A DNA stretch of 64,000 bases, from IMG/VR virus record IMGVR_UViG_3300032261_000561. One strand, given 5' to 3'. Below the pieces are notes generated by a model. That model searched no databases, was not told where the DNA came from, and worked only from the letters and a program-made list of their open reading frames with translations. The translations under genes were made by a program, and so were the position numbers. Source of the stretch: a virus. Within the stretch, counting starts at the first letter, position 1, and every line of letters starts with the position of its first letter. Of the stretch, positions 4,668 through 43,345 are shown in pieces.

Positions 4668-7199
4668 CTACGGGCTCGCTACCCGTGTGATGATGGCGCC
4701 CAGGTAGTAGGCCACCTGATTATCGTTGAGCTTGAAGTCGTCGTCGTACACCGCGATCGGGTCAGGGTCCTCGGAGTTGGCGAACACCCGCACGCCGTGA
4801 ACATCAGGATTGTCGGTAGTGGTGGTGATTTTGACGTCGTCCACGCCCAGGATTTGAGTGACCACGGTGCACAGCATGGTGAATTTGATCTGGGCCCCGA
4901 ACGGACAGGCGGCGACGAAGCTCTGCAGCCGGGTGGCCAGTGCCGCATTGACCACGGCGGGGGAGTAACTGCGGTTGTATTCGATGGACAGGCAGGGCTG
5001 CAGGTAGACGTAGTCGGCTTGATGCACCAGCACATCGGTGCACAGCTGTTTGGAGGAGGTCATCACCGAGTCGAGGACCTCGGGCACCTGGTTGTACACG
5101 TATTCTAAGGTCAGCTCGGTGCCGGTGGTCGGGCCGGTGGAATCCCACTCGATCCCCGAGGCCTCTAGGCGCGAGCCCTGCAGCTCTGTGCGGTCGGCCA
5201 GCACGTAGTAGTGGGTGCCCATGATGTAAATCTCGGGACCCACCGTCAAGGTGGGTGGGAAGGTCACCAGCGGCACATTGCCCAGTCGGGTGTAACGGTT
5301 GGTGGCCGTCGGATTGCCCGGCGAACCCATCCGAATGAAGTTGCCGGTGTAGAGCGGGTCGTCGACCAGACTGGAAAGCGTGACGCCGCTGATGATGGTC
5401 TGCTCGGTGACACTGTAGGGCGCGATGCCATCGCAGAAGATGTCGACTTTGTTGGTGATCCCGTTCACCGGGTCGTTGCGGCTGCAGGTGGGGGTGTATT
5501 GGAATTCCAGGTCGACGATGTCGTCCTGATTGATCACGCCGGTAGCCACCCGGGTGAACACCGGCGAGACGCCGGTGGACAGCATGTAGTCGTCGCCCTC
5601 GGTGTAGAACGTCTCGTCTTCCTGGCCCAGGTTGATGAAACAGCTGGTCATACCGGTGTTGTGGCTCAACAGCCCTTCTGCCACCAAGGTGTTGGTCGAA
5701 GTAGACAACGCCACCACATCCTGGACGCCAGCTTCTTCGACCGATATCACCTTGGCGAAGTTGCTGTTCTTGCCGACGATGCAGCTTCCGTACAGATCGC
5801 TCATGAACTTAGGGGCGAGTCGAGCGCTCTTGAAGATGCCGAAGAAGCGCAACCGCTCATCCATACCACCATGAAGCAAGATCTCCTGGCAGCAAGGGTC
5901 GGGTGATAGACCTGTGCTGCGGGTTCGGGCTACGGAGTGCTTGAACTTATTCCTGGCCAGCAGGTCCACGATCTTGTCGAAAACCGGGCCGGGGTTCTGC
6001 AAGATCGTGACATTGTGCTTGTTGTAACTGGCCTCGCCGTCAGTAATCCCGGCCATCCAGCCAGCCTCGAAGGATAGATCCTCATCCCAGGAAGGAACGT
6101 ATCTGATCTGGTCACCAGGCAAGAGATCCTTGGTTTTGACCCACTGAACATTCTGGGTGTTTCGGATGACACCGCGTCTCTTGCCCGTATGTCCGACACG
6201 TCGCCCAGAAACCAGCCACATGTGATCAGCGGTGGAGGTGACCGTGGTGCCGTTATCCATCGTCACCATAAGGGTGCGAGCAGGACAGATATAAGACTGC
6301 GTAACCCGAGACTGACGCCACTTTCTCTTATTGCCGCGCCCCTCGACAGACTCGTCGAACCCGACGATCAGATCTCCAACCCGAAGAGAGCCCACGGGCA
6401 CCCAGTCCAGGCCGTCGGTAAGGACTCGTGTCTCTGGGATGAGGCACCATACGTACTTGACGTCCTGGTCGACCGGCAGCGCTACCGTCGTCGAGGGCGC
6501 GGCGATCTGCGTGGTGTAGAGCACGGTGGGACCGAAGACAATCACCCGGGTGACCGAGGTGTTTTGCTGGCATAGCGCGATGTACCAGTCGGCGGTCCCG
6601 GCCACATTGCGCAGGAAGGTGTCTTTGAAGCGCTGCCTTAACGCATCGTCGGTCTCGGGGTCGGTGCCGTCGGTCATGGCCTGCAGGTTGGTGACCGCCG
6701 AAGATCCGATCGCGGTGGACAGATTGGTGACCGCGCCCGGCGGCACGTTGCCCGAGACACCGACCGTGGTGCAGGTGACCGGGACGTCCACCGAGTAGTC
6801 ACCGGCCGGGAGCACCACCGACTGGTTGGCCGCGTAGTACAGCTGCACACTGGCCCCGGCCAGACCGGCGGTGGTGTAGAAGGTGGTGCCCTGCTGGATG
6901 GTGTAGTCGGTGGTGGAGGCCACCGTCAGGGTGACCCGCACGGTGCCCTGCGCATAGGTGCCCTGCAGCCTGCCATAACCGAACAGCCCGACGAACTGTT
7001 CCAGCTCCATCCCGGCCTTGGTGTCGACGTCCAGCAGCGAGCCCAGCAGATAGGTGTCGATGGAGGCGGCCGCGATCTGCTCGGCGCAGGCGTCGATGAT
7101 CTTGCGCTCCGGCGTACCAATGGCACACGACAGCGTCGGCATGGTCAGCGCCAGCTGGGCCAGAATCTGCTGGCTGATCTGGTCAGGTGTACCGGGCAT
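4668..7199 (-). CDS. Baseplate J-like protein containing an intein
   Basis: Baseplate J-type motifs (GVSGNVPPGAVT, GTDPETDDALRQRF); next to a gp25-like gene. Confidence 0.85.
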   Translation of the reverse strand: MPGTPDQISQQILAQLALTMPTLSCAIGTPERKIIDACAEQIAAASIDTYLLGSLLDVDTKAGMELEQFVGLFGYGRLQGTYAQGTVRVTLTVASTTDYTIQQGTTFYTTAGLAGASVQLYYAANQSVVLPAGDYSVDVPVTCTTVGVSGNVPPGAVTNLSTAIGSSAVTNLQAMTDGTDPETDDALRQRFKDTFLRNVAGTADWYIALCQQNTSVTRVIVFGPTVLYTTQIAAPSTTVALPVDQDVKYVWCLIPETRVLTDGLDWVPVGSLRVGDLIVGFDESVEGRGNKRKWRQSRVTQSYICPARTLMVTMDNGTTVTSTADHMWLVSGRRVGHTGKRRGVIRNTQNVQWVKTKDLLPGDQIRYVPSWDEDLSFEAGWMAGITDGEASYNKHNVTILQNPGPVFDKIVDLLARNKFKHSVARTRSTGLSPDPCCQEILLHGGMDERLRFFGIFKSARLAPKFMSDLYGSCIVGKNSNFAKVISVEEAGVQDVVALSTSTNTLVAEGLLSHNTGMTSCFINLGQEDETFYTEGDDYMLSTGVSPVFTRVATGVINQDDIVDLEFQYTPTCSRNDPVNGITNKVDIFCDGIAPYSVTEQTIISGVTLSSLVDDPLYTGNFIRMGSPGNPTATNRYTRLGNVPLVTFPPTLTVGPEIYIMGTHYYVLADRTELQGSRLEASGIEWDSTGPTTGTELTLEYVYNQVPEVLDSVMTSSKQLCTDVLVHQADYVYLQPCLSIEYNRSYSPAVVNAALATRLQSFVAACPFGAQIKFTMLCTVVTQILGVDDVKITTTTDNPDVHGVRVFANSEDPDPIAVYDDDFKLNDNQVAYYLGAIITRVASP
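5658..6446 (-). mobile_element. Intein (263 aa) with LAGLIDADG-type endonuclease block
   Basis: Starts CLIPETRVLT, block B TSTADHMW, LAGLIDADG-like GWMAGITDGEAS, ends VAEGLLSHN followed by Thr(+1); codon usage differs from the exteins. Confidence 0.9.
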
Positions 7200-7211
7200 G
7201 GACGGCGCCCC

Positions 7212-7628
7212 TTAGACGCTTGACGTTGTGCTGGTGGTTGCCGTGGCCCCGCTGCCGGTAGTGACCGACACCGCCACGCTGACGGTGTCATACGTGATGC
7301 CTACATCAACGGCGGTTAGTGCGTTGAGCAGCTCCTCGAAGCTGAAAATCTGTGGGTTGTTCTGTAAGGCCAGATTCTGAATGGCCTGATAATTGCCCAG
7401 CACCCGGTCGACTTCGCCCTGGACCCGCGACTGCGTGGTCAAATCGATCACCCCGCCGATGAAATTCGGCAGCACCGAACCGTAGCGGGGATGAAATCGG
7501 TCGACTCCCAGCCGCTCGGTCAACCACAGCGACATGTCCTGTTCGAGTTTCTCGATGCCCGAGACGATGGCCAGGCTGGATCCCCGTTGCACCAGGTCCC
7601 CATTTTGAAGTGCGAGGCTGAAGGTCAA
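7212..7628 (-). CDS. Baseplate wedge subunit, gp25/GPW-like
   Basis: 138 aa, DRFHPRYGS motif, upstream of baseplate J; TTG start after GAGGAGG. Confidence 0.75.
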   Translation of the reverse strand: MTFSLALQNGDLVQRGSSLAIVSGIEKLEQDMSLWLTERLGVDRFHPRYGSVLPNFIGGVIDLTTQSRVQGEVDRVLGNYQAIQNLALQNNPQIFSFEELLNALTAVDVGITYDTVSVAVSVTTGSGATATTSTTSSV

Positions 7629-7691
7629 GGCGAAGCCTCCTCTCTCCCTTTAGGTGCGGAAATGCCCCCGACGACAGGGCCGGGCAGAGGG

Positions 7692-7778
7692 TTACGCGAC
7701 TCCCGTCACGTCTGCGACCAGTCCGTTGCCCGCGATGTTGGTGGGGTTGACCGGATTGAGTCCGAGTTGGGCTTCCAT
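7692..7778 (-). CDS. 28-aa mini-ORF duplicating the N-terminus of the upstream fibre gene
   Basis: MEAQLGLNPVNPTNIAGNGLVADVTGVA; ATG overlaps the TGA of 7778..8596. Confidence 0.5.
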   Translation of the reverse strand: MEAQLGLNPVNPTNIAGNGLVADVTGVA

Positions 7779-8596
7779 CAAGCCACCCCGCTCCAACTGC
7801 GCAGGCGCAGAATGAGGTTGTATCCCGCGAGGTTGCAGTAGTAGACGCCGATCTGAGTGGGAGTTAAATACGCCGTGCGAGCTTCTTGGTGATAGGTGTG
7901 CCAATCAATCCCGTTGATCGACCACTCGAAGTAGTGAGTGGTAGTGCCGTCGTATCGGTACCGCCACCACTGAGGCATAGCCCCAATCCAGTACAACGGT
8001 GGGAACCAGGTTTCCATCGCCGCGCTGTAAGTGCTCGTATTCGCCCATTGATCGCCTGTAACGGACTGCGACAGGGCATACCAGGGCGCGGCGAACGAAG
8101 TGGCGTTATATAGGCCTGGCCCAAATGTTTCCAGCTTCGTTCCGTCCGAGATCACCAATCCGCAGCGCCACCAGTTACCCGCTGAAGGAAGAACAGTGGT
8201 ATTAGCAAGATCGACATAGAAATTGGTCACTAGGGAGAACGCGCCCACTGGGTATGCGCGGTAAACGTATCCAATGCTCATACTGCGACTAGGCGCAGTG
8301 AGCACCATCCCGTCTTTATCCGAAACCCATGTCGCTGTACCCATATTGACCGATGTCCAGCCGGTCGTCGGAGGGTCGGCCATCGGCGGGCCGCCGACCC
8401 CGCCAAGGCGGATCTTGACCCAGCTGGTGCCGTTGTCCTGGTAGAGCGCATCGCAATCGGTGCAGTAGTAGACCCGGTTGGGAATCCCCGCCGCCGGTCG
8501 TGAGGCGTAGGTTCCCGAAAGGCTCAATCCTTCGGCCCAACCGACGGTGGCCTGATCGGTCAGGTTGACCGGGTTGAGTCCGAGCTGCGCTTCCAT
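7778..8596 (-). CDS. Minor tail/receptor-binding protein, lectin (ConA)-like C-terminus
   Basis: 272 aa, GTYASRPAAG...YYCTD fibre motif, Trp/Tyr-rich beta C-terminus (FEWSINGIDW). Confidence 0.55.
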   Translation of the reverse strand: MEAQLGLNPVNLTDQATVGWAEGLSLSGTYASRPAAGIPNRVYYCTDCDALYQDNGTSWVKIRLGGVGGPPMADPPTTGWTSVNMGTATWVSDKDGMVLTAPSRSMSIGYVYRAYPVGAFSLVTNFYVDLANTTVLPSAGNWWRCGLVISDGTKLETFGPGLYNATSFAAPWYALSQSVTGDQWANTSTYSAAMETWFPPLYWIGAMPQWWRYRYDGTTTHYFEWSINGIDWHTYHQEARTAYLTPTQIGVYYCNLAGYNLILRLRSWSGVA

Positions 8597-8603
8597 GCTG
8601 GTC

Positions 8604-9839
8604 CTACGTCTTGATCAGGTAGTTGAGGACGATGGTCGGCTGGACAACATTGTGCGTTCCACCGCCGCCCGCGTAGATCGCCTGGTACTGGCCGTTGAAG
8701 TTAGAGCCACCAGCGAGACCCGACGCTGATATAAACCCATTCAAAAAGGAACTGTGGTGGTGCGACGGCATCTCTCCGTATGACAAGGTGTGAACTTGTT
8801 CGCCGCCAGCAGCGCCGAGGGTGGCACCTGCTGCGCCAAAAGGTGAACCGCCCACCCATAGCTGAAATTCTGTCGCCGCCACATAGTTGGTACCGGGAGG
8901 GGTGACTTGGAGGTAGCGCCAGGTTTGGGCAACCGGCAACCGGACCAGACCGTTGGTGGAGCCGGTTTGGCCGTAGCCCGGAAGGGTCATCACGGTCGTC
9001 CAGGCGGTGCCGTTGTTGCTGCCTTGTAGCAAAAAGCTGTCGAGGTATTGCGGTCCGAAACCGCCAGGGATATTGGTCAGGTAATCCCAGCCCAGGACAA
9101 CGGAGTCGATGTATTGCGACGAGCCGAGGTCGGCGCGGATGTAGCTACCCGCCGCCGAAGTGGTGGCAGCTTGCTTGACGGTCGCACCGGAGGCGCTACC
9201 ATCGTTCATTCCGGCATAGTTGGCCGCTGTCGTCCCTGGATACACCGATGATTGCGAGTAGACCGCGTTGGTGGCTTGTATTCCCTGAGTCAGTCGGGAC
9301 GCGGCGGTGCCGCCCATGTTGTCTTTGCCCGCCACTGCGCGCCCCCGCATGTCAGGGACGTTGAAGGTGGTGTTGCCGTCGCCGTAACCGTGCGGCGAGT
9401 AAACCAGAGAATGGGTGCCGCTCTGGCTGCCCGAAGTGGCGATTGTGACACCGGACACCGCGTTGGCGAAACTGGTCGCGATGCTGAACGTGTTGGCGTC
9501 GATGTAGATGACGTAATACGTTGTGCCAGCTGTGATTCCGGTAGGCAATGCCCCTGTGGTGCTGAAGATAACCGGATCGCCTGTAACCAAACCATGACCG
9601 GTGAGAGTGACCACAGCCGGGGTAGCAATCGTGATGATGGGGTTACCCAGCGTCGGGTTGAGCGTGGTGAACAGGTTGGCGTAGGTGATCCGCGAGACCG
9701 CCTGCCCGTAGCACAGCAGCCAGCCAGCGGGCACCACCAATGATGATCCGGCGAACGGCATCACGGCTCCGGTGAAGATCCCCACCGTCATGGCGTCGGC
9801 GGGCCGAGAAGGAGCGGTGCCTAGTTGTGGTTGTGCCAT
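8604..9839 (-). CDS. Tail-collar-domain fibre protein with inserted discoidin (F5/8 type C)-like domain
   Basis: MPFAG...PAGWLLCYGQAVSR, GDGNTTFNVPDMRGR, HNVVQPTIVLNYLIK; insert YIRADLG...LQGSNNGTAWT...WRYLQV. Confidence 0.75.
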   Translation of the reverse strand: MAQPQLGTAPSRPADAMTVGIFTGAVMPFAGSSLVVPAGWLLCYGQAVSRITYANLFTTLNPTLGNPIITIATPAVVTLTGHGLVTGDPVIFSTTGALPTGITAGTTYYVIYIDANTFSIATSFANAVSGVTIATSGSQSGTHSLVYSPHGYGDGNTTFNVPDMRGRAVAGKDNMGGTAASRLTQGIQATNAVYSQSSVYPGTTAANYAGMNDGSASGATVKQAATTSAAGSYIRADLGSSQYIDSVVLGWDYLTNIPGGFGPQYLDSFLLQGSNNGTAWTTVMTLPGYGQTGSTNGLVRLPVAQTWRYLQVTPPGTNYVAATEFQLWVGGSPFGAAGATLGAAGGEQVHTLSYGEMPSHHHSSFLNGFISASGLAGGSNFNGQYQAIYAGGGGTHNVVQPTIVLNYLIKT

Positions 9840-14130: not shown

Positions 14131-14973
14131 CTACGCGGGGGGGACGGTGGTGATCGGGGGCGGCGCCTGCAAACCTTCGGACAGCGGCGTAACTGCAGTT
14201 ATCGGTACCGGCTGCGGCGGCATCGGGGGTAGCGCCACGTTCGGTGATGCCCCAAAATGTTCGGTCCGCAACTCTTCGGGTGCAGGCATGGAAACTAGCG
14301 CGACTGCGGTGATAGTGTTGGTGACCTCCGAGGTCGCGGTGATGCCGGGGTACTGGGTGTTCACCGTAACGGTGGCCCTGTACTCGTGCCCTTCGATGAG
14401 ACCGGAAATGGTCATGGTCACGTTCCCGCTGGCGTCCACGCTCGGAGTGGGGGTGCTCCCGGTAGTGGTGTTGGCGGTGACGTCGGTCAGGTTGACGACG
14501 TAGGTGAACGGCCCGTTGGGGCTGGTGGGCTGAAGGAAACTCAGCGCGGCGGTCAGGCCCGACTCCGCAGTCAAATTCGGCACAGGAGTCCAGACGAGTG
14601 GGGTGATAGCGGTGAACATGTCCACGAAATCAACCGCAGTGCCAGGCAATCCCGCCGACACGCCGTAAATGTATGCGCGGCTTACACTTTGGACCTGCCA
14701 GCCATCGATGTCGCTGTAGCCCACGTCGGTCGCCATGATCCAGTCACCCTGATAGGCGAACTGATCGGCATCGTTGGCACGGGACAGCTTGATACGCCAG
14801 CCGCCAGGGTATTGCGGGCCAGTAAGGCTCTCGGTCTGATACCCAGCAATAGCCATGAGTTCCGCGAGCAGTGCCGCGATCAGCCCTGCGGTCTGACCAT
14901 TCGGTCCCAGTGCCACCTGGATGGCCTGACTAGCCTGGGGGACGATCCGCGTGACCGGCAAAACTGCTGACAT
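14131..14973 (-). CDS. Virion protein with FN3/Ig-like C-terminal half
   Basis: 280 aa; TISGLIEGHEYRATVTV; AGGAG SD. Confidence 0.5.
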   Translation of the reverse strand: MSAVLPVTRIVPQASQAIQVALGPNGQTAGLIAALLAELMAIAGYQTESLTGPQYPGGWRIKLSRANDADQFAYQGDWIMATDVGYSDIDGWQVQSVSRAYIYGVSAGLPGTAVDFVDMFTAITPLVWTPVPNLTAESGLTAALSFLQPTSPNGPFTYVVNLTDVTANTTTGSTPTPSVDASGNVTMTISGLIEGHEYRATVTVNTQYPGITATSEVTNTITAVALVSMPAPEELRTEHFGASPNVALPPMPPQPVPITAVTPLSEGLQAPPPITTVPPA

Positions 14974-14981
14974 GATTTCTC

Positions 14982-17900
14982 CTAAAGCGGTAAAACGGTA
15001 AGGGCGCGATTATAAAAAGTGCAAGAACCACCACTGACTTGGTACTTGGCCTTAAATATAGTCGCGCCTTGATTAAGATTCGGGATCAAGAACGTGTTTC
15101 CGGCCAATATCCAGGACCCAACCGTAGGTACATTATGGCCGATTGCATAGTTGTTTGGAGTATCTTGCGCTGCAAGAGTATTGGCACCTGATAAAGCCAC
15201 GCCCATCATGCCCCATTGCCCAGCGGTCTGAGGATAAATTAAAGCCCCAAGCGTAACTACAACCATCCCGCTTGGGCCGACATTCACAGTCACAGTATCG
15301 GTGGTGGTAGCCAAATCAGCCCACGATGTAGAACTGGTGTTTTCGCCAGCAGGCACCTGTGCTGAAATGGGGCCTGCAACAGCAGCATCATAAAATGCCC
15401 ACGAGGTCATCGAGCCGGGGAGCTGGCGGCTGATCGGCGTGATCCAGGCCGCACCAGGCGCACCGCCACCGGCATACTGCCAGCCATTGATGCCGTAATA
15501 CCAATATATCCAGTGGTTGTGGGGGCCGTCGTAGTAGTCAGCACCGTCAGTTTGGGCAGTGCCGCTATAACAGCCTGTTCCCCCACCGCCCCAATTGTTT
15601 CCCGCCCCGCCATTGTAATCTGGTGCCGCGCCGTTGGTCGCACCCCAGCCCGAAGCCGCCGGGCCACCGGAAAATAAATCACCGTTGATATACGCACTGC
15701 CTGCGGCACCGCCCGTTGGTGAGCCGCCATTAGCCGCTCCCCCGCCGCCGCCATACGAATATATTTGTTGAGTTCCGCTGGGAGAAGGCCATTGAATATA
15801 GGCAACATCACCAGCAGCACCGGGATACGCTGCGTTGCTAGCGGTATCCGTTATCACACCAGTATTGCCGCCATAAAAATAGAATTCTTCATGCTGCACG
15901 ACATAGTAAATGCTTTGACCAACGCCCCCACCACCTCCGGCATAGTAGGTAAACGCTTGGCCTACAGCGGGGCCAATGGACGATCCAATGGTGACCAATC
16001 CTGTAGAAATCTGCCCTCCCGCGCCGCCATTGCCCCAGGTTCCGACACCACCACCACCACCACCGCCAGCGGCAATAGCGACCACCTCGTACTGATCGCC
16101 GGTCACCATCCCAGCAGGCGGTGTGAAGGTTCCGCTGGTGGCACCTCCCCAGCCGGATGTTCCCAAAGACGTTCCGCCGGTGCCGAATCCACCGTATCGG
16201 TAATTCGCGCCGATCTGGCCGACGTTACTGCCGTCGGTCACCTGTTGATTCAGACCATTCGGGCCGGTCAACACCAGCGTCCGCCCGACAGCCTCAAAGT
16301 TGTAGGCGTAGTTGGCAACCAGCGCACCCGATCCAGGCAGGCCGAACGCACTACCTAGTGGAGTGTTCACCCCACCCACCACCACACCGATCCGGCAGTT
16401 GTTGGTGCTGGTGTTGGACTGGATGATCGCGTAGTGATATGAGGTCATCGTGGCGTTTGACCGCAGTATCAACATCTTTGGATAGTTGTCCGCGACATTC
16501 CAGATACCGCTCACGGTTTGGGTGTCCGTCGATGCCTGCTGCGCGGTGTTGAGCGCACAGTTATAGACGAGTCCCGCACCGGGAGCGAGTGGAGTCACCC
16601 ATCCACTGGGTAGAGTGCCCGTGAACGTCTGCTGGAACGACAATCCCGCGTTGCCGCCGCCGTAGAAGTGCGGCAGCTGTGACTGGATGCTCGCTGTCAG
16701 CGCCGCCAGCTGTAGCTGCTGGTTGGCCGCTGCTGCTGCTGCCGCATTGACCTGCGGGGTGGCCGCGCTGGGCAGAGTGGTGCCCTGCCAGTTGTTCACC
16801 AGACCCGTCAGGTGGCCGGTGAAGGACGAAGCGAGCTGCGCCAGGGGTGCCCCGATAACCGGGATGCCGTTTAATGCGGTGACCAGCGCATCGACGCTGC
16901 CCTGCGACACCGCGTTGGCGATCGCGGTCTGAACGTTGGTGTTCTGGACGAAGCTGCCCAGCGCCTGTGCGCTCTCCTGCTGTGCGTACTCCAACACAGC
17001 GGCGAGGTCGGTGGTGGCACTGGTGGCCACCTCGTGCGCGGCCTGGATGCCCGACGACATCTCGGCGGTGATGTCAGGCAGAACCTCTGCGGGGATGACG
17101 CTGCCCAGGCTGCCACCGGGTTGCTGGTTGAGCGCCGAGACCAGCTGCTGGACAGAGTTGCCGGTGTTGGTGGTGCCGGTGTACTGCTGCACCACGGTGT
17201 CGAGCACCTGCTGGGCGAGATGTTCACCGTTGGAGATCTGGGTGCCGACCTGGCCCATGGTGTTGGTCTGATTGCCGAACCCCAGCGGGAAGTTCCACGG
17301 GAAACTCGATCCACCCGCACCCAAGGCGTTGTCGATGAAGCTGGTGATCTGGGATTGGACGGGACCGAGGAGGGGAATGCTGTTGACCCCCGGCAACACC
17401 GGGACTCCGGTGCCCAGGCCGGTGGGACTGCCCATCAGGCCCGTCAGGTCGGTGAACCAGGTGGCCATCCCCGACAGCCCGCCCCCGCCGGTGGTCGTCG
17501 ACCCGGTGATGGACTGCATGAGGGAATCCACGGTGGCGTAAGGCATCCCGCCCCCGGTGGTGCCGACCTGGTACATCGCATGCACGGTGTCACCGACGCC
17601 GGGAGCGTTGGCTAACGTGACGGCTGCGCCCGACGTGGTGTAGTCGGTGCCGTAACGCTGCAGCAGCCCGTTGACGAAGACCTGCAGCGTGCCGCTGGTG
17701 GCCGTCTGGGTCAGGTTGAACAGGGTGTTGACACCGTTGATAACTCCGGTGGGAATCTCGGAGAAGAACCTGACCGAGATGTTGTTGATGAGAGCGATCA
17801 AAGAAGATACCGGGTTATTGGTGCCACCGACCGTGCCGTCGATGAGCTGCTGCAGCGGAGTGAAGGTGCCGCTGGATGTCATGTTGGTTAGGTATCCGGA

Positions 17901-30064: not shown

Positions 30065-31666
30065 TTACTGGGTGCTTTGCAGCGTGTTGGACGGCCCGCC
30101 GAAGTCGGTGATCGACGAGCTGGCCGGAGCGGTGATGGTCGTCGAGGTGGCCGTAGTCGACGTCGCGTTGGAGATGTTGCTGGTAGTGCCCTGCTGGGTG
30201 ATGTTCCCCGACGTCAAACTGATATTGAAGGTCACGACTATATAGTTGAGTGGGAATGCCGGAAGCCAGCTGTAGCTAACTTCGATTACATCAGGGTTGG
30301 TCAGCAATTGCCGGGCTTCAAGACCGAAGTAGTCGACCAATAGTCCGTCGCGAACAAGGCTCTGAAGTGCAGCCTCAGCGGAGGCCTTGACATTTACCAG
30401 CGTGTAGTCATAAATGGGCTGGCCAATAAGATTGGCATTTTCCAGGTAGTCCCGCAAACGATAAACCATGGCATCCTGCTGGCCGATAATCGACCATTCC
30501 CGGTGCAACATATCCCTGTTATCGGTGGTCACGCCGTGGCGCACCCAGATCTGTAACCGCCGGGTCTTCTCGATGACGCACAGCCCGTTCTCGGTTTCCA
30601 GGTCCTTCTGGGCCTCGGGCTCGACTTCGGGAATGTCGTTCCAGCCGGTCGGCAGCTTGTGCGTCAGCGGCATGGCCCAACTCATGTTCATCGCCATCCC
30701 CGCCAAGCTGGCGGCCATGAACTGGGCGCCGATCGTGATGTCGTTGTTCAGCTCGGTAGAGAAGTACGTGAAGCGATCAGGGGACAGCAGCATGATGCGT
30801 TGGTCGGACAGCTCCATGGCGTTGTTCATCCGCTGAGTGGAGGGAACCCTGGTGCCGGTGCCGTCCATGCCGCAGACAGCGCGCCGCTCGAAGCGGTTGG
30901 CACTTTGTGAATCGACGTGCTCCTGCACCAGCTGCTGCAGTGGTTGTTGGCCGGTGCAGGGCACGACAATAGCGACCAGCGGCTGGTCAGCGAGAGTGGC
31001 CAGCGCATCGTTATAATCCCCGATGGTGGGATTACCTGGCGTGGTCGGTTTCACTGCCGCGCACACCAGCTGGTAGGCGCCGTTGAGGAAGGCGAACTGC
31101 GCGGCCAGTGTCAGCTCAGACTGGATGGTGCCGTAGGCGGCAGATCCCGGGGTGACGTTGTAGGGCAGACCGTACGCCGTGACGACGTCTCGGTAGGTAT
31201 AGAACACCTTGGGCAGGAAATACGTGTCGTCGGTGAACTGGTAAGCCACTTGAATGGTTTCGCCTTGGGTAATGTGCCCACCGTCGATCACCCGGCTGAT
31301 GGTGTAGAGCACGGTGGGAGTGCCGAGCGCACCACCCACCTGGACCACGGTGTAGTCGGCGCCCAGCGTGTAGACCTGCCCGCTGTTGGGGTTGGTCACC
31401 ACGATGGTGGCCGGGTTGATGCCCGCGTTGCCCAAAGTTCGGTTGATGGCCGGAGTGGTGTCGTTGGTGTCGGGATTAATCAGCAGCGACTCGATGAACT
31501 GGCGGAAGCCGACCGACACCCCGAACAGACCGACCGCCGTCGGCAGCGTGGAGTTGACTGCCAGCTGAGGACCCGGCGTGGGGTTCACATAAACGCCAGG
31601 TGGCAGGTACCTACTGAAATCGATTGCCGATGACGGGGCCGTCGTCGGCGCCACCGGAGTGGTCAT
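30065..31666 (-). CDS. Tail sheath protein
   Basis: YLPPGVYV N-terminus, VRHGVTT, Y.W.PAFPLNYIVVTF C-terminus. Confidence 0.9.
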   Translation of the reverse strand: MTTPVAPTTAPSSAIDFSRYLPPGVYVNPTPGPQLAVNSTLPTAVGLFGVSVGFRQFIESLLINPDTNDTTPAINRTLGNAGINPATIVVTNPNSGQVYTLGADYTVVQVGGALGTPTVLYTISRVIDGGHITQGETIQVAYQFTDDTYFLPKVFYTYRDVVTAYGLPYNVTPGSAAYGTIQSELTLAAQFAFLNGAYQLVCAAVKPTTPGNPTIGDYNDALATLADQPLVAIVVPCTGQQPLQQLVQEHVDSQSANRFERRAVCGMDGTGTRVPSTQRMNNAMELSDQRIMLLSPDRFTYFSTELNNDITIGAQFMAASLAGMAMNMSWAMPLTHKLPTGWNDIPEVEPEAQKDLETENGLCVIEKTRRLQIWVRHGVTTDNRDMLHREWSIIGQQDAMVYRLRDYLENANLIGQPIYDYTLVNVKASAEAALQSLVRDGLLVDYFGLEARQLLTNPDVIEVSYSWLPAFPLNYIVVTFNISLTSGNITQQGTTSNISNATSTTATSTTITAPASSSITDFGGPSNTLQSTQ

Positions 31667-31722: not shown

Positions 31723-32538
31723 TTACAGCGTGCGCGAGGTCCGGACGACGACGTTGGCACCCTGGCCAACGGGCGGCAACGTGGGCGTTACACCCGGGGG
31801 CACCGAGTCCACGGCGGTGGGGAAGATATCGATCCGTTCCAGGGTGTAGGCGCCATCGTGGTCGAAGCGCACCTGGGATTGCCCGAGCAGTTCGAACGAG
31901 AAACTGTCGGTGTAGGCCATCCTGTCGGGCTGCCAGGGCACGCCCAGCTCCGCGCCCTGCCCGCCGGAGGCCATGGAGGCAAAGTTGGGGGTGACGCTGA
32001 CGTAGGGGTTCTCGTTGAGCGCCGCGATCAACGTGCGGAACTGCTTGGTGTCCTGCTGGGGCTGAGTGACCCACACCTCGGGCGTGCGCGAGAACGAGAT
32101 CATGGTCATGATGGCGTCCGACAGCCGGTCGCGATCCAGGTTGGTGACCGCCACGATGGACAGGATGACCTTGCCCATGTAGGTGAAGGCCTGAATCGGC
32201 GTCCACACCAGCTTGCCGTCGATTGTGGTCTGGGTCATGATCTCGTGGCCGATCCCGGCCGGGACCCACTGGTCGATGGAGAACTGCACCCAGATCCCCG
32301 GGTACTGCTCTTCGAGCAGCGGGTATTCCAGGTCGACGTAGACCTCCTTGCCGTCGGCAGCGCGCAGGTCGGTGCGCTTGATCGCGTCGCGCAGCGCGGA
32401 CACCACGGCGCGCTTGGTGGCCTCGATGGGCCCGCCCGATGAGCCCGGCAGTATGCCGTTGACCTGCAGGTTGAGGTCGACGGGATTCTCATCCATGAAC
32501 GCGTCGGGGCCGTAGGGCCCCTCGTCCGGATTAGTCAT
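31723..32538 (-). CDS. Tail completion/terminator-like protein
   Basis: 271 aa upstream of sheath; EYPLLEEQYPGIWVQF. Confidence 0.55.
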   Translation of the reverse strand: MTNPDEGPYGPDAFMDENPVDLNLQVNGILPGSSGGPIEATKRAVVSALRDAIKRTDLRAADGKEVYVDLEYPLLEEQYPGIWVQFSIDQWVPAGIGHEIMTQTTIDGKLVWTPIQAFTYMGKVILSIVAVTNLDRDRLSDAIMTMISFSRTPEVWVTQPQQDTKQFRTLIAALNENPYVSVTPNFASMASGGQGAELGVPWQPDRMAYTDSFSFELLGQSQVRFDHDGAYTLERIDIFPTAVDSVPPGVTPTLPPVGQGANVVVRTSRTL

Positions 32539-33002
32539 CGCCTGAAAATTCCTTTGAGCAGAGCCATGATGTCCCTCTTCAGATTGGGCCGGTCCTCCTG
32601 CAAAGCCTCGTCGATCGCCTGCAGCATGAAGTGCTTGGGCCTGATACCCGGGTGCCGCCAGCGCTGGTCGCGGTAGACCTGGCCGACGTGTGGGATGTTG
32701 ACGTAGCCGGGCTCACCGACGTGGCTACCCCGGCGGATGTGCGGACCGTCGCCCTGCTTACAACTCATCGGGATGGTGCGCCCCTGCACCCACCACATCA
32801 GGTAGGGCCGGGTGCCTTTCTCCTGGTACATGACGTATTTGAGCGAGCTGTTGATCGCCACGATGCCGCCGGTGTTCTTCATCGGACTGATCGACTGGAT
32901 AGTGCGCTCCGACCAGCCCATCGAACGCGCGCTCTGGCGTGCCTTCTTGGCCGCCAGCTCGGACGTGCGCTGGCAGCCGCTGCGGGGATGTGGGATCTTC
33001 AT
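32535..33002 (-). CDS. Neck/tail completion protein (HK97 gp10-like)
   Basis: YVMYQEKGTRPY...HPGIRPKHFM. Confidence 0.65.
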   Translation of the reverse strand: MKIPHPRSGCQRTSELAAKKARQSARSMGWSERTIQSISPMKNTGGIVAINSSLKYVMYQEKGTRPYLMWWVQGRTIPMSCKQGDGPHIRRGSHVGEPGYVNIPHVGQVYRDQRWRHPGIRPKHFMLQAIDEALQEDRPNLKRDIMALLKGIFRR

Positions 33003-33220: not shown

Positions 33221-33832
33221 CTATCCCAGATATGCATATAGCGGCGGTATCGGCGCGGGGAAGCTCTGGCCGATGATGGGGAAGTCCCCGATCTTGATAT
33301 TGCGCTGCAGCTTGGTGACCGGCGCGCGCTGGCCGATGACATCCCAGCGGGCCTGACCGAACCGGGCGCCGGTGCGCATCGAGTCGGGGGTCACCTCCCC
33401 TATGCCGTAGATCCCTTCCAGCTCCTCGGGCACCGGCGCAGCCAACGCCCCGCCCCAGATGCGCACCCGAGCCACGTAGTCGTGCTCGAACAACGTGGGG
33501 AAGGCCTCGGTCTGGATCTCGCGGGCGTCGGCCGTCCAGACACCGCGCGCGCTGACAGCCTCGGGTTGGCGGGTGTCGCTGAACAACGCCCACACCCGGC
33601 GGGCCTCACGTACGCCGCCGAAGTAGCCGGTGCCATAGCAGATCGGACAGTCGTTGGACCCTTGGGTGTAAATGTCGTCGGCGCAGTTAGGGCAGCGCAT
33701 TTTGTTGGGGTCGTCTTTGGTGGGATGGTAGATCTGCAGCAGGATGCACTGCTCGCCGTGGTACTGCAGCGAGTCCCGCACCCAGTTGCGGGCTCGGATG
33801 ACCGAGTACTGCTCGATTGCCTTGATACTCAT
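33221..33832 (-). CDS. Head-closure/stopper-like protein with Zn ribbon
   Basis: RCPNC...CPICYGTGYFGG; position in the neck operon. Confidence 0.55.
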   Translation of the reverse strand: MSIKAIEQYSVIRARNWVRDSLQYHGEQCILLQIYHPTKDDPNKMRCPNCADDIYTQGSNDCPICYGTGYFGGVREARRVWALFSDTRQPEAVSARGVWTADAREIQTEAFPTLFEHDYVARVRIWGGALAAPVPEELEGIYGIGEVTPDSMRTGARFGQARWDVIGQRAPVTKLQRNIKIGDFPIIGQSFPAPIPPLYAYLG

Positions 33833-36285
33833 GACGCGTGCCGCCGTTCGAGCTTGCGCTCGTCGATCCCCCAGTCGGGATCAGACCAGTCGTCGACCTC
33901 GCGTTCGGGACCCTGCCCCCACGGCAACTCGGAGTACGCGTCGGGGTCGTAGGCCTGGATCGGACCGACGTGCGGGACGGCGCCCCTCTTCTGGTTCGCC
34001 TTCAAGTCCTCGTGGTAGAGGTCGTGGTACTCGCGCGGGATTGTGCCGTTGTCGCTGATCTTCTTCTTGACTGTGGCTCCGTTGGCCACCCAGCCCGCCT
34101 GCGCGGTCTCATTCCAGGGGTAGGGCCCGTCATGGGGCTCAACCAGATAGATGTTGGGCTTCCTGTCGTTTTGGGCCCAGCCCTCTGCGAAGCTGGGGTG
34201 GTTCTCCAACCAGACCCAGTCGCGCCGCCCTTCATAGGGCTTGCCGAACGAGGCCGGGGTGTCGTAGAAGCCGTGCTGTCGGCTGTCCGGTGAGTCGTAG
34301 GAGCTGGCGCCGCCGCGCGGCAGGATGTGGGCACCCTCGGGGATGTCGTGGTGACTGGCATGAAACCAGACGTTGGGAGCGTAGGGCTTACGCGGCTCTT
34401 CACCGGCTGGCAGCTTGTCGAAGAACGGCGGCTCGGGGTAGTCGTGGGCTTCCTCCGGCAATGGCATGGCTAATCGCCTGGAAGGCTGCGACAGCACCTC
34501 ATGCCAGGGACCGTCGTGGTCCTCGTCAACCTCCTGATCGGGATCAGCTGGGCCGTTCCAATAGTCATTATCGTAGGGACGGATGCGCACACCGCTGACG
34601 TTCAGATCGGTGCCGGGCAACAACGTGTGCTCTTTCTCCCAAGGGAATGAGCGGATTCGCTCGCCGGTGTCGCGGTCGAACTCGCCGGTGGCGGCGCGGT
34701 TAGGATCCTCGCCCCGGCCGTCCCAGTCTGCCGAGATGACCGCCTGTAGGTTGCCGCCCTGGCCAGTATCCTCGCGAGGCCATCGAGCGAACCGTTCAGC
34801 CTGGGTGGGATCGGCGGTCCAATGCCAACCCATGCCTTTCTCCGGACCATAGGCGTGCCCGTTCATCTCGCTCACGGTATGCGGGCCAGCCAGTGCGTCG
34901 AGTAGGTGACCACCCAGCTCGGGGTGATCCCAATCGCCACCAGACAAGATCTGATGGACCTTTTCCATGCCGGGGTGGGTGGTGTCCAAATTGACGCCAC
35001 GGTAGAGCTTAGTGGTCATGCCGGGAATGGTCAGTTGCTCAGCCACCCGCCCCTTGTCGTACCCGGCCGCCAGAATCCGGTCGGCCGCCGCCTGGCTGTG
35101 CGCCTTATGCTCATCGGTCAGCGGCGACTGGCCCACCAGCTGATCGCCCCACTCGTAGTCGTAGTCATCGGGTTCCATGTCCAGGTGCCGGGCCACCAGC
35201 CCGGCGGTGTGCTCGGCCTGGCCTTCCAGGATCTCCTCGGCCTCGCGCAGGTGATCGGGTGTCTCGGCATGGCCTAAAGCAACGTGGCCCATCTCGTGCA
35301 GCGCCTGCCCGGCCGGGTGATGCGCGAATGGGGAGATGGCGATGCGGTGGCGCTTGTCGCGATAGTTGGCGTAGGCGTCAAGCCGAAAACCTTTGGGCGC
35401 CTTGGCTTCCTTGGGGTCAAACGGGATCTCGTCGATGCCCAGGCTGTTCAGCGCGCGTTGCAGATCCCAACCACTGTGGTGGGTGTACTGAGTCTTAGGG
35501 GTCCAGCCCCGGTTGGGACGCCCCTGCCAGCTCTTGGTGGTGTCCAGGTTGCCGCCCCGGTGCAACTGGATGGATCCGAAGCGGTATGCCATGCTCGCTC
35601 GATGCTTTGCAAGTTCTTCGCGATAGGCACGCTCCGACTCCGGCGTCATCCCGGGGAGCGATTCGCCTGCAGCTTCAGCGGCCCGAATTTTGCTTGAACT
35701 CATGCCCTCTTCGGGATCGCGCGGCAGGGTGAGGTAGTTGTAGCCCTCGTGATTGGAACCAACCTCACCGGAATATAGCGACGGATGCTGCTCGGGAGCA
35801 CCGGGCACGGTGGCGTCTTCGCCGGTGACGTTGATGATGGTGTGATTCGGATATTGCCGCTGCGCCCAGTTCGCGAGATCGGTGCGCCGTGGCTTCCCTG
35901 TGGCAAGCTCGACTTCCTCGGACGGCCCGGTGTGAACCTCCACAGGTGCGCCGTTCATCTCCTCTGGGAATGCAACCCTGCTCATGTTGGCACGAGCCTG
36001 CAGGCCCAGTCGTTGCCGTGGATCCAGCTGTTTCTCCGCTAACAGTTTATCTGCGGTGGGTGCAACGATGGAGCCGCCCACTTTGTATCCGGCCTGGGTG
36101 AGCACATTATGCGCGTCCTGCAATGTGCTCACGTGTCCCTCATGTGGTGGGTTGAATGCGCCGCCATACACAAGTGCGACGGGTTTGTCTTTCGGGGGAG
36201 CACTGTCGGTTACGTTTAACGAGATTCCCGGCATCTGGATGGGCATGGCCAGGGCGAACGTCTCGGCCTGCCGCAGAACGCGCAT
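33829..36285 (-). CDS. Polyvalent protein: NadD/NMNAT-like nucleotidyltransferase + HExxH zincin + two ADP-ribosyltransferase-like domains
   Basis: YGGAFNPPHEGH...MSSSKIR; LHEMGH...EGQAE; KLYRG...GWHWT...EKE; WFHAS...VWL...IYLVEP. Confidence 0.7.
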   Translation of the reverse strand: MRVLRQAETFALAMPIQMPGISLNVTDSAPPKDKPVALVYGGAFNPPHEGHVSTLQDAHNVLTQAGYKVGGSIVAPTADKLLAEKQLDPRQRLGLQARANMSRVAFPEEMNGAPVEVHTGPSEEVELATGKPRRTDLANWAQRQYPNHTIINVTGEDATVPGAPEQHPSLYSGEVGSNHEGYNYLTLPRDPEEGMSSSKIRAAEAAGESLPGMTPESERAYREELAKHRASMAYRFGSIQLHRGGNLDTTKSWQGRPNRGWTPKTQYTHHSGWDLQRALNSLGIDEIPFDPKEAKAPKGFRLDAYANYRDKRHRIAISPFAHHPAGQALHEMGHVALGHAETPDHLREAEEILEGQAEHTAGLVARHLDMEPDDYDYEWGDQLVGQSPLTDEHKAHSQAAADRILAAGYDKGRVAEQLTIPGMTTKLYRGVNLDTTHPGMEKVHQILSGGDWDHPELGGHLLDALAGPHTVSEMNGHAYGPEKGMGWHWTADPTQAERFARWPREDTGQGGNLQAVISADWDGRGEDPNRAATGEFDRDTGERIRSFPWEKEHTLLPGTDLNVSGVRIRPYDNDYWNGPADPDQEVDEDHDGPWHEVLSQPSRRLAMPLPEEAHDYPEPPFFDKLPAGEEPRKPYAPNVWFHASHHDIPEGAHILPRGGASSYDSPDSRQHGFYDTPASFGKPYEGRRDWVWLENHPSFAEGWAQNDRKPNIYLVEPHDGPYPWNETAQAGWVANGATVKKKISDNGTIPREYHDLYHEDLKANQKRGAVPHVGPIQAYDPDAYSELPWGQGPEREVDDWSDPDWGIDERKLERRHAS

Positions 36286-37274
36286 CAGGGGATCCTGGTG
36301 GCCGGGAAACTGATCGCCGCTGCCGCCGGGTAGAACTTGAACGCGCGGGTCATCGCGTTGTAGGGGCTGAACAGGAACAGACTGCGCGCGCCGGAAGACC
36401 CGAAGAAGCCACCGCCGAGCAGCAGTGCACCCCGGCCCAGCTGCAACAGCTCGCGTTTGGCCATTTTGACCATCGTCTGGTACTCACTCCACTCGGAGTT
36501 GAACAGGTTCTCCCAGCGCTGGGCGTAGTCGCGCCGGTCGGTGTAGGTGACATTCATCCCGGGGAAAGCGGGGATCTCGATGTAGGTCCGCCAAGCGTGA
36601 CGCACCACTTCCAGGTAGGTGCCGAGCATCAGCAGCCCGTTGAACTGCCCGCCGGTGGCACCCGGCCCGCTGAAGGTGTAGGTGGTGACCGGGAAGCCGG
36701 TGTAGTTGAACCGGGTGGTGGCCACCGCCGCCAGCTCGGAGATGCGCTCGTAGTCGAAATGGGTCTGGAACTCATCGATCAGGTGCAGGCCGCCTTCGGT
36801 GGAGTCAAACAGGTCCCCGAACATCCAGCTCACCTGCTGAACCATTAGCTTGTCCTCGGGGGATAGCGCTTCGTATTGCGGCATCTGGTCGAGGATCTGC
36901 AGGAAATCGTTGTAGGTGAACGAGCTGCCGTTCACCTGGTAGGTCCACTGCGCGGTGAGCACGCCCCGGTTGCCGGTGTAGGCCGGTCCGATCGGGTAGT
37001 CATACATGCCGGTGTCGGCGCGGTTGATCTGGGTGGGGTCGGCGGTGATCACCAGCTCCCCGCGCGGGTCGGTAGCGGTGGCAGTGGGATCAGTGACGTC
37101 GTCGAACCACACCTGCAGCTGCAGTGTGCCGGGGTCAGGGTCCACCGCGTTCTGGCCGTCGTAGATGGTGATCGCGACGTAGCCATAGCCGTTGAGGGCA
37201 ACGAATTTACGCACCAGCGACTGGTCAGTGATCTTCGGAGAGAAAATACCGATTCCACTCGGAAAAGCGACCAC
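36285..37274 (-). CDS. Head-to-tail adaptor/connector
   Basis: 329 aa, GTG start; adaptor-like C-terminus (DRRDYAQRW...KMAK); position. Confidence 0.55.
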   Translation of the reverse strand: MVAFPSGIGIFSPKITDQSLVRKFVALNGYGYVAITIYDGQNAVDPDPGTLQLQVWFDDVTDPTATATDPRGELVITADPTQINRADTGMYDYPIGPAYTGNRGVLTAQWTYQVNGSSFTYNDFLQILDQMPQYEALSPEDKLMVQQVSWMFGDLFDSTEGGLHLIDEFQTHFDYERISELAAVATTRFNYTGFPVTTYTFSGPGATGGQFNGLLMLGTYLEVVRHAWRTYIEIPAFPGMNVTYTDRRDYAQRWENLFNSEWSEYQTMVKMAKRELLQLGRGALLLGGGFFGSSGARSLFLFSPYNAMTRAFKFYPAAAAISFPATRIP

Positions 37275-41269: not shown

Positions 41270-42958
41270 CTACCGAGTCGCATGGCGCAACAGATGATCG
41301 GCTCGGGCCAACGCAGCCATCGCCAACAGCTTGGCCATCGGGCGCATCCAGTTGGGCCGGTTGCCGATGTCGGGCAGCTCCCGACGCGGGTCGTACTCCT
41401 CCCCGATCTCCGGCGTGTAATTGGGGTTAGGCCAAGCCAATTCACCTTTGGGCGCCTTCTTCGGACCCGGGTATGTCTTGCCGGGATTCTTGGCCTCCCA
41501 CTTGGCCGCGTTGGCGTCGTACTTCTGCCGGTCCAGATCCTCCTTGAACTTCAACCAGACGGTGGCCTGCACCTGCTTGGGGGTGAGGTGTTCGTGCGGC
41601 GCCCGGTCGGCGTTCAGCCGCCGAGTGGCCTCCTGCACGGCATGCCGATAGAGGTTGTAGCCGACCGGAATCTGCTGCCGGGTCACCGGATCGATCTCCG
41701 AACCGCCCAGCTCGGGTGGCGCCAGATAGCGTGTCTCCAACGTGCCACCGTGCGGCTGGGCCATGGCGCGGACCATGTGGGTGTCGATCACCGCATCCTG
41801 GTCGTCGAGGTTGGTGTAGTAGCCCTGGTCGTTGATCGGGGTGGCGTTGACGATGTTGTTGTAGAAGCTGTTGATCTTGGGCCCGCTCAGATGCTGCTGC
41901 CACTGATCGCGCGGCGCGTTGAAGATGGCCTTGGAGCGTTCCACGTTGCCGCCGATGGTCGGCAGCCCGGCGGATCCAATCGGCGTCTGCGGATTGAACT
42001 CGCCTGGCAAGCCGGTGGACTTGACTTTCTTCTTGCGGGCCTGTGCCACCGCGCGCGTCATCCGCGCCAGCTGGGTGTCGACGCCGGTGTGCGCCAGCCC
42101 GTTGAGCCACTCCTCGCGGATGTTCGGGTCGGCCATCTCCGGCATCACCTGGCCGTGGGCATCGGCGTAGCGCTCCATCTCCTCGGCGGTCTTGGGTTCG
42201 TGGCCGTTCTCGGCCATCCACTGCTGGTGCACCTTGGGGTGGATGTAGCTCTGCTGCCAGTCGTATTTGTTCTCGGGCCGGTAGTTGAGCAGAAAGTGCA
42301 TCCCGTTCTGCAGGTTGTTGCCCCACTCCTCATGCGGGGACAGCCCGGCCATGATGCCAGCCGCTCGGGGGAAGTCGTGGATGGTCTTGTTGGACAGGTC
42401 TTTGGTGGCCTCGTGTGCGCCCCGATACCACCATCGGCCCTCGGTCTGCTGATCCGGCGTGGCATTGCGGTAGTGGTCCATCGTGTTGCCGATGAGGTGT
42501 TCCAAGTCGATCTTCTCGCGCACCTTGGTGCCCCGCGCCAGCACCACCAGGGCCTGGGCTATCGCCGAAACGAACAGTCTGCGGTCGGACCGGAAATGCC
42601 CCCACTCGGGCTCACCGACGTCCTCGCCGGTGTCGGGGTGATAGAACCGGCCCTCGCCGGGGCTGTACTTGACCTGGCGCCAGATCCGCTCGGCCTGGTC
42701 CTCGGGGCCGGTGTCTTGGGGAACACCCGACGCCCACCCGGGACCCTTCAGCTTGGTGACCCACCGGGGATTCTGGACGAACATCTCCCCGACGTCATCA
42801 CTGAGGCCCTCGTCCCCCATGGTCATCCAGGGCCCGGGGTTGCGGCCGGGGAAGATGTTCACCGGCTTGGTCTCGACGGCGGTGCCCGCTGCCAGCACCT
42901 GGACGGCGTGGGCCATTGCAATAATCACCGCATGCCGGTCAACGGGAGAGCTGTCCAT
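41270..42958 (-). CDS. Protein with HhH-GPD/endonuclease III-like motifs
   Basis: GRWWY...AGLSP...W..N; GPKINSFYNNI...AVIDTHMVR...QVQATVW; start uncertain (42958 assumed). Confidence 0.5.
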   Translation of the reverse strand: MDSSPVDRHAVIIAMAHAVQVLAAGTAVETKPVNIFPGRNPGPWMTMGDEGLSDDVGEMFVQNPRWVTKLKGPGWASGVPQDTGPEDQAERIWRQVKYSPGEGRFYHPDTGEDVGEPEWGHFRSDRRLFVSAIAQALVVLARGTKVREKIDLEHLIGNTMDHYRNATPDQQTEGRWWYRGAHEATKDLSNKTIHDFPRAAGIMAGLSPHEEWGNNLQNGMHFLLNYRPENKYDWQQSYIHPKVHQQWMAENGHEPKTAEEMERYADAHGQVMPEMADPNIREEWLNGLAHTGVDTQLARMTRAVAQARKKKVKSTGLPGEFNPQTPIGSAGLPTIGGNVERSKAIFNAPRDQWQQHLSGPKINSFYNNIVNATPINDQGYYTNLDDQDAVIDTHMVRAMAQPHGGTLETRYLAPPELGGSEIDPVTRQQIPVGYNLYRHAVQEATRRLNADRAPHEHLTPKQVQATVWLKFKEDLDRQKYDANAAKWEAKNPGKTYPGPKKAPKGELAWPNPNYTPEIGEEYDPRRELPDIGNRPNWMRPMAKLLAMAALARADHLLRHATR

Positions 42959-42988
42959 GTCATCGAATCCCACAGCACTCACGCCAAG

Positions 42989-43345
42989 ATGGTCAGATGC
43001 CGTTCGTGCGGCTGGGTACCCGCCGTCTACAGGAAGCAGTCCAGCGGGCACATGCGTCCCACCTGCAGCACCGTTGCGAGAAGCCGCAGAGCCAACAAGA
43101 AACGGGACTTCGGACTCACCGCCTCGGAGAGAGACGCGTTTCTCGAAGGGAAGGCGTGCGAGATCTGCGGCAACACTGAGGACCTGGTGCCTGACCATTG
43201 CCACGTCACCAAGGTCATTCGTGGCGTTCTGTGCCAGCAGCATAACCGGGCCCTCGGTCTACTCGGGGACACCGTCGAGGGTGTTCGACGTGCCCTCGCC
43301 TACCTTGAGAAAGAAGTCCCGGGGGATCGCCCCGGGACCTCTTAG
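42989..43345 (+). CDS. Endonuclease VII-like (His-Me finger) nuclease on the opposite strand
   Basis: CEICG...DHCHVTKVIRGVLCQQHNRALGLLGD; C-terminal part of track ORF 41282..43345. Confidence 0.8.
   Translation: MVRCRSCGWVPAVYRKQSSGHMRPTCSTVARSRRANKKRDFGLTASERDAFLEGKACEICGNTEDLVPDHCHVTKVIRGVLCQQHNRALGLLGDTVEGVRRALAYLEKEVPGDRPGTS

Follow-up and report, generated by a model that had tools for sequence, protein, structure and literature searches.

This study concerns a single gene in a 64,000-nucleotide stretch of viral DNA (IMG/VR virus record IMGVR_UViG_3300032261_000561; the whole stretch, from whose first letter all coordinates are counted, is referred to as the window). The gene lies on the minus strand at positions 33829-36285, in the interval between the capsid and sheath genes, and its product, here called P0001, combines four modules (A-D) behind a short N-terminal leader: a predicted nucleotidyltransferase resembling NMNAT and NadD, a zincin metallopeptidase, and two domains with the predicted fold of ADP-ribosyltransferases (ARTs). 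Such a composition had been proposed in a preliminary description of the same DNA. The reading frame is indeed open over all 818 codons without a break, and every motif listed at the time was found in its place. These motifs are not a matter of chance, as each lies within a module that is strongly matched by family hidden Markov models (HMMs) built from homologues (2e-39 for B, 5e-60 for C and 2e-51 for D). The features of the gene are as follows.

33829..36285, minus: whole open reading frame of P0001 (818 aa), a putative polyvalent cargo protein of the order leader-A-scar-B-C-D
36247..36285, minus: N-terminal leader, truncated form (residues 1-13, MRVLRQAETFALA), start common to P0003, P0124 and P0023
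35587..36222, minus: module A (residues 22-233), predicted HIGH-superfamily nucleotidyltransferase, NMNAT/NadD-like, PF01467 above cut-off
36147-36133, minus: PHEGH motif of module A (residues 47-51)
35700-35683, minus: SSSKIR motif of module A (residues 196-201)
35536..35592, minus: fusion scar (residues 232-250, MAYRFGSIQLHRGGNLDTT), end of a second leader followed by the opening residues of a C-type module
35053..35478, minus: module B (residues 270-411), zincin metallopeptidase, HEMGHVALGH and Glu354
35298-35284, minus: HEMGH motif of module B (residues 330-334)
34459..35037, minus: module C (residues 417-609), predicted R-S-E-type ADP-ribosyltransferase fold, R429, H488-W489-T490 and E550-x-E552
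35007-34996, minus: LYRG motif of module C (residues 427-430)
34824-34816, minus: HWT motif of module C (residues 488-490)
34638-34630, minus: EKE motif of module C (residues 550-552)
33832..34482, minus: module D (residues 602-818), predicted ART fold closest to Arr, core at about residues 632-766 (33988-34392)
34365-34354, minus: FHAS motif of module D (residues 641-644)
34152-34135, minus: IYLVEP motif of module D (residues 712-717)

The gene is tightly inserted into its surroundings: its start codon shares nucleotides with the stop codon of the upstream gene (TGATG), its own stop codon does so with the start of the next gene (ATGA), and it is thus translationally coupled on both sides within the capsid-sheath interval. 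The notion that it is coupled to head-tail joining genes holds as far as the overlaps are concerned, but 'head-tail joining' itself is a positional inference, the flanking genes belonging to PHROG 2791 and PHROG 2806, both of unknown function. Neither flanking protein gave a match in the PDB, and the only gene near P0001 with a weak likeness to Neck1/tail completion proteins lies further downstream (32535-33002). The composition of the gene is mosaic: the G+C content at third codon positions is 0.665 for module A, against 0.83 for B, 0.72 for C and 0.85 for D; the A/T-richer codons reported for the N-terminal domain are thereby confirmed, A having the lowest value of the four.

The exact P0001 protein is encoded on 78 metagenomic contigs, the longest of which measures 161,668 bp, and a form of 866 residues on 103. 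An assembly artefact is thereby ruled out; the fusion is real and the phage is common. Sequence patterns of P0001 found no match in IMG/VR, and megablast of the region found no deposited phage record that is close at the DNA level. The sheath gene of the window (30065-31666), for its part, is 59% identical to that of Mycobacterium phage Phrappuccino and 52-54% identical to those of Myrna, Gordonia phage Pupper and Rhodococcus phage Finch. The source phage is probably best explained as an uncultured, Myrna/Phrappuccino-like soil myophage of mycolic-acid actinobacteria.

The four modules

The assignment of module A is carried by profile searches. It gives a full-length match to the Pfam family CTP_transf_like (PF01467; 25.8-29.7 bits against a gathering cut-off of 21), and its top NCBIfam families are NadD/NMNAT models, with TIGR00482 as the best (E 5e-8). 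A search of PDB sequences with a profile of five A modules led to human NMNAT3 and NMNAT1, a plant NMNAT and bacterial NadD, with no other transferase class among the matches; polyubiquitin chains, although listed first in this search, are an artefact of summed weak repeats and contain no significant single stretch. On this basis, the N-terminal domain appears to be NadD/NMNAT-like, as had been suggested. With NMNAT and NadD it shares the HxGH and SxxxxR motifs, and its best structural-sequence matches are NMNAT3, NMNAT1 and NadD. Unlike the phage salvage enzymes NadM and NadR, module A is not fused to a Nudix or kinase domain, but is joined to effectors in a structural operon or has them as neighbours (PMC9503650). 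NadM, NadR and NadV appear in a 2022 survey of viral NAD-ADP-ribose systems as salvage enzymes only.

Between proteins of very different architectures, the identity of module A amounts to 67-87%, and the module also occurs as a free protein of 235-330 residues. With tblastn, no copy of it was found in 50,697 deposited phage genomes. In another phage type (L003:8001-10154 and L004:9001-12075), it is located near the C-terminus of proteins of 700-1340 residues, which have a PHROG 2922 body and in some cases LysM, and whose genes are located directly upstream of DUF7245, DUF7316 and giant genes with inteins.

In module B, the residues H330, E331, H334, H339 and E354, which make up the pattern HExxH...H...E, are invariant in an alignment of 16 sequences. 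A set of its homologues, about 270 residues in length, consists of the N-terminal domain of ArdC (ArdcN, E down to 8e-10) followed by the zincin domain; P0062, P0085 and P0113 are among those that bear ArdcN. The zincin domain of these homologues gives weak matches to Peptidase_M78 and MPTase-PolyVal, with which an Atlas feature search agrees: the best homologue reaches 23.2 bits against a cut-off of 27.5 (PF18818) and 20.8 against 22 (PF06114), and P0001 itself 12.5 bits against the cut-off of 22 for Peptidase_M78 (PF06114). A profile search of PDB sequences with module B found no match. The domain had been described as an ImmA/IrrE-type zincin; while the zincin is real, it is better described as being of the ArdC/MPTase-PolyVal type than as ImmA/IrrE proper. 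Compared with the anti-restriction protein ArdC, module B has its counterpart in the homologous zincin at the C-terminus of ArdcN-containing proteins, but P0001 lacks the ssDNA-binding ArdcN domain, for which a Pfam scan gave no match. MPTase is the hub peptidase of polyvalent proteins, of which 52% have an association with ArdC-N (PMC5512222). An alignment that combined the homologues of B with those of C was discarded because the two families were misaligned in it.

For modules C and D, we relied on AlphaFold models built from family alignments. The model of C has a pLDDT of 83 with a confident core, and the fold searches converge on ARTs: Foldseek ranks 1-30 and VIA ranks 1-47 are all members of the ART superfamily or ART-like, with a few unrelated chains at the weak tail. 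The VIA search was exhaustive and retrieved 76 of 48,161 chains at a Z-score of at least 2, headed by TreX/TreTu, PltA, pertussis toxin, cholera toxin and LT (Z 4-5.2). In 51 instances of the module, R429 is conserved at 90% and H488-W489, followed by S or T, at 90-100%, while the two glutamates E550 and E552 reach 88% and 96%. A profile search of PDB sequences found no match for C. The fold recovered from the predicted structure thus supports the proposal that the LYRG...HWT...EKE domain is an R-S-E-type ART.

The model of module D has a lower overall pLDDT (73.6), with a core above 90. Here, Foldseek placed Arr first (2hw2, E 2e-4, probability 1.0), and so did VIA, where Arr (9iaf) came first among 48,161 chains (Z 6.5; 93 residues at an rmsd of 3.4); 55 chains reached a Z-score of at least 2, and the best 50 of these 55 belong almost all to the ART superfamily. 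Across 72 instances, the conserved residues are W640, H642, R687, W692, Y713, W724 and N725, the strand-1 histidine being present in 99%. A profile search of PDB sequences found no match for D either. The predicted structure thus points to an Arr-like fold for the FHAS...IYLVEP domain, in line with its earlier designation as an Arr-type ART, and D would share with the rifampin ADP-ribosyltransferase Arr (2hw2, 9iaf) its small size and the strand-1 histidine. Sequence identity to Arr is, however, only about 10%, and D, unlike Arr, occurs in arrays inside phage proteins.

Two side observations concern these domains. Downstream of the core of D, P0001 ends in an acidic, low-confidence tail (33832-34070, residues ~740-818), which is conserved with P0003 up to residue 815; no fold was predicted for it, and it found no match. 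Furthermore, the weak ART-fold matches of the two modules (Z 3.6 for C, Z 2.3 for D) include a chain from the pre-ejectosome of cyanophage A4 (9k3a_B), a hint that an ejected protein of defined structure may contain ART-like domains.

The leader, the fusion scar and the cargo slot

The leader of P0001 is a truncated form of a sequence found on a range of related proteins. Its consensus comprises about 17 residues (M-x-R-[IV]-L-[RT]-[QA]-x-E-[QT]-F-A-Y-R-L-A), a longer variant continuing to ...PWRTA, and a leader HMM matches 35 out of 123 related proteins, in every case at the N-terminus and never internally. In P0001, it is broken off by module A after ...ETFA. A derivation of the leader from the N-terminus of the downstream gp69-like protein, by copying, was rejected in a test against shuffles.

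Remnants of a second leader are found between modules A and B. This stretch, the scar, matches the N-terminus of P0003 and the start of P0023, a separate gene of a sister phage, and P0001 was therefore formed by the fusion of adjacent tagged genes. More precisely, the comparison shows P0001 to be the product of an in-frame fusion of leader-tagged cargo genes, to which B and a full C module were added downstream.

The interval in which the gene lies (window 33221-37274) is delimited by two conserved genes of the structural block and is a hypervariable cargo slot, occupied by differing leader-tagged enzymes in Pupper, Phrappuccino and three metagenomic relatives. Its borders in the window, and its content in related phages, are as follows.

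36285..37274, minus: upstream conserved structural-block gene (homologue of Phrappuccino gp66 and Myrna gp118)
33221..33832, minus: downstream conserved structural-block gene (homologue of Phrappuccino gp69 and Myrna gp119)
Myrna: slot empty
Pupper: gp109, leader plus ParB C-terminal domain
Phrappuccino: gp67 and gp68, in which D follows the leader
IMG/VR sister phage of 143.6 kb: leader-A (P0124) and leader-C-ParB_N (P0023) as two separate genes
Soil phage at 87% nucleotide identity: one gene, leader-C-A-GNAT-D (P0003)

According to HMM mapping, further relatives are mosaics or arrays of the P0001 modules, for example D-C-C-D-D, D-D-D-D and C-C-C. On a 19.5-kb metagenomic phage contig (L005), two separate leader-bearing multi-module proteins are encoded (7160-8626 and 14551-17626), one consisting of leader and A and the other of leader, C, D and DUF7178, along with a further D-like open reading frame. 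In Phrappuccino, the leader also stands at the start of gp57 (L001:1045-4311), a protein of 1088 residues encoded directly after the major head gene, which contains a C-type ART module (E 2e-46). Lastly, a 657-residue protein encoded downstream of the capsid gene in the window (41270-43243) has a homologue in Pupper gp101, two genes upstream of the Pupper C-module gene gp103.

[quoted passage not shown] As in the T4 internal proteins and Alt, a short conserved N-terminal peptide is found on unrelated payloads that are encoded with virion genes, and a putative R-S-E ART is among these payloads in both cases (PMC3012670). By contrast, the actinophage leader has no sequence similarity to the T4 sequence, and its payloads are fused into one chain.

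A putative polyvalent effector and its alternatives

Polyvalent proteins combine MPTase, ART, GNAT and ParB domains; their genes are found close to late genes, and injection is predicted for them (PMC5512222). The 2017 survey of this class by Iyer, Burroughs, Anand, de Souza and Aravind also names ARTs of the H-Y-D type and Pol-beta nucleotidyltransferases (PMC5512222). Like these proteins, P0001 unites several unrelated effector domains in one chain and is encoded among late and virion genes. Both have a zincin MPTase related to the C-terminal domain of ArdC as well as ARTs, sometimes in multiple copies, and the relatives of P0001 also have GNAT and ParB partners. What P0001 adds is the HIGH-superfamily NMNAT/NadD-like module, which is not mentioned in the text of that paper, while the shared N-terminal leader and the defined insertion slot are new in the P0001 group (compare PMC5512222). 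With four modules in one chain, encoded between capsid and sheath genes, our verdict is that P0001, as judged from its sequence, would belong to this known class. Three features are new, namely the NMNAT-like module, the two putative ART families outside the current profile libraries and the leader-tagged cargo slot. A literature search for NMNAT-ART fusions in phages found nothing relevant, in agreement with the earlier impression that this fusion had not been described.

The interpretation that we favour, if by a narrow measure, is that P0001 is a modular polyvalent effector, carried as cargo in the slot, addressed to the particle by its leader and acting early in the host. We infer its delivery in the virion, and with it packaging and injection, from the genomic context and the shared leader; the function of the leader, the cleavage of the chain and all enzyme activities are likewise putative. 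The leader would address P0001 to the assembling particle, with which it would enter the host together with the DNA. There, the zincin may cut the P0001 chain into parts or cleave host proteins, module A may make NAD+ or NaAD out of host NMN or NaMN and ATP, and modules C (R-S-E ART) and D (Arr-like) may spend NAD+ on the ADP-ribosylation of host targets in early infection, for takeover or for counter-defence.

A number of observations weigh against this interpretation, several of them in regard to module A. TIGR00482 scores it at 33.1 bits, far under the NadD equivalog cut-off of 112.45, and its PDB alignments span only about the first 60 residues, that is, the N-terminal third. HMM mapping places ARTs in the same chain in only two of 17 mapped A-bearing proteins (P0001 and P0003), whereas in the remaining ones A is joined to LysM, to ddrB-ParB or to a PHROG 2922 body; the earlier idea of one chain that both makes and spends NAD+ does not, therefore, correspond to a conserved architecture. 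Moreover, a 96%-complete sister genome, which carries three C modules, has no NAPRTase/Nampt, Nudix, Macro or PRPP-synthase-like gene. No known NAD-reconstitution (NARP-type) pathway, such as NARP2 (Nampt + NMNAT), is therefore visible there, the suggested rebuilding of NAD+ against NADase defences finds no support in this genome, and host NMN or NaMN would have to supply module A. All this would suit an alternative in which A, as a HIGH-superfamily transferase, acts on something other than NMN or NaMN, for instance by adenylylating another phosphorylated metabolite or a nucleotide signal, so that P0001 would not make NAD and the pairing of A with ARTs would be incidental. We regard this alternative as possible, yet on the whole doubtful, since all named matches are to NadD or NMNAT, with PPAT and other members of the family scoring lower or being absent, and since A and a C-type ART are adjacent or fused in three related phages. 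In addition, the GGxFNPPHxGH, APTADK, GKPRRTDL and SSSKIR blocks of the A alignment parallel the motif order of NadD and NMNAT.

With regard to the ART modules, the fold Z-scores of C and D are modest (5-6.5). Neither module has a Pfam match even at E<=5, which for C includes 14 homologues and the families ADPrib_exo_Tox and ART-PolyVal; for D, the Arr family Arr-ms (PF12120) was matched neither by the module nor by 15 short homologues, while one long relative does have an Arr-ms match, the position of which within the protein could not be placed. In the 72 D instances, conservation reaches 70% for none of the acidic residues, so that D has no conserved catalytic acid to complete the H-Y-D set. 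Since up to four copies of D are found per protein, D and the D arrays of the relatives might not be transferases at all, but modules that bind NAD or ADP-ribose, or decoys. We consider this unlikely in view of the conservation of the strand-1 histidine, the aromatic residues, R687 and N725. Arr itself reportedly departs from the canonical glutamate. Multi-copy arrays of catalytic ARTs, with up to 12 copies, are moreover found in polyvalent proteins (PMC5512222). As for delivery, the leader of P0001 is truncated, and the window contains neither another leader-bearing gene nor a further A-D module. The slot is empty in Myrna, and its cargo is therefore not structural; the flanking genes have no assigned function. 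P0001 could accordingly be a set of cytoplasmic enzymes, a 'moron' in the structural operon that is never packaged and acts late in the producing cell, with the leader serving some other end, for instance regulation, folding or recombination. This appears improbable to us, because the leader is kept at the protein level over very divergent phages and unrelated payloads, and at N-termini only, and because the gene is tightly coupled to virion genes; the repertoire of MPTase, ART, GNAT and ParB is, furthermore, that of polyvalent proteins with predicted injection (PMC5512222).

A more far-reaching scenario may be envisaged, which we put forward only tentatively and hold to be less probable than not: Myrna/Phrappuccino/Pupper-like actinophages would possess an addressed cargo system, in which a conserved leader of about 17 residues loads into the virion any enzyme encoded in the slot of the neck-region operon. 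In the present case, the cargo would be a self-processing chain that injects an NMNAT and two ARTs, allowing the ARTs to work even in NAD-depleted, defence-activated cells. Packaging is directly testable in Mycobacterium smegmatis or Gordonia terrae, as cultured relatives carry leader-tagged proteins (Phrappuccino gp57, gp67 and gp68, and Pupper gp109). Should the leader prove to be an address label, it would offer an easy means of bringing proteins of choice into actinophage particles, and its payloads would amount to an inventory of effectors for a first strike on mycobacteria-like hosts. An injected NMNAT beside ARTs would, if true, represent a new way in which phages engage in the battle over NAD+, unlike the known cytoplasmic NAD-reconstitution pathways.

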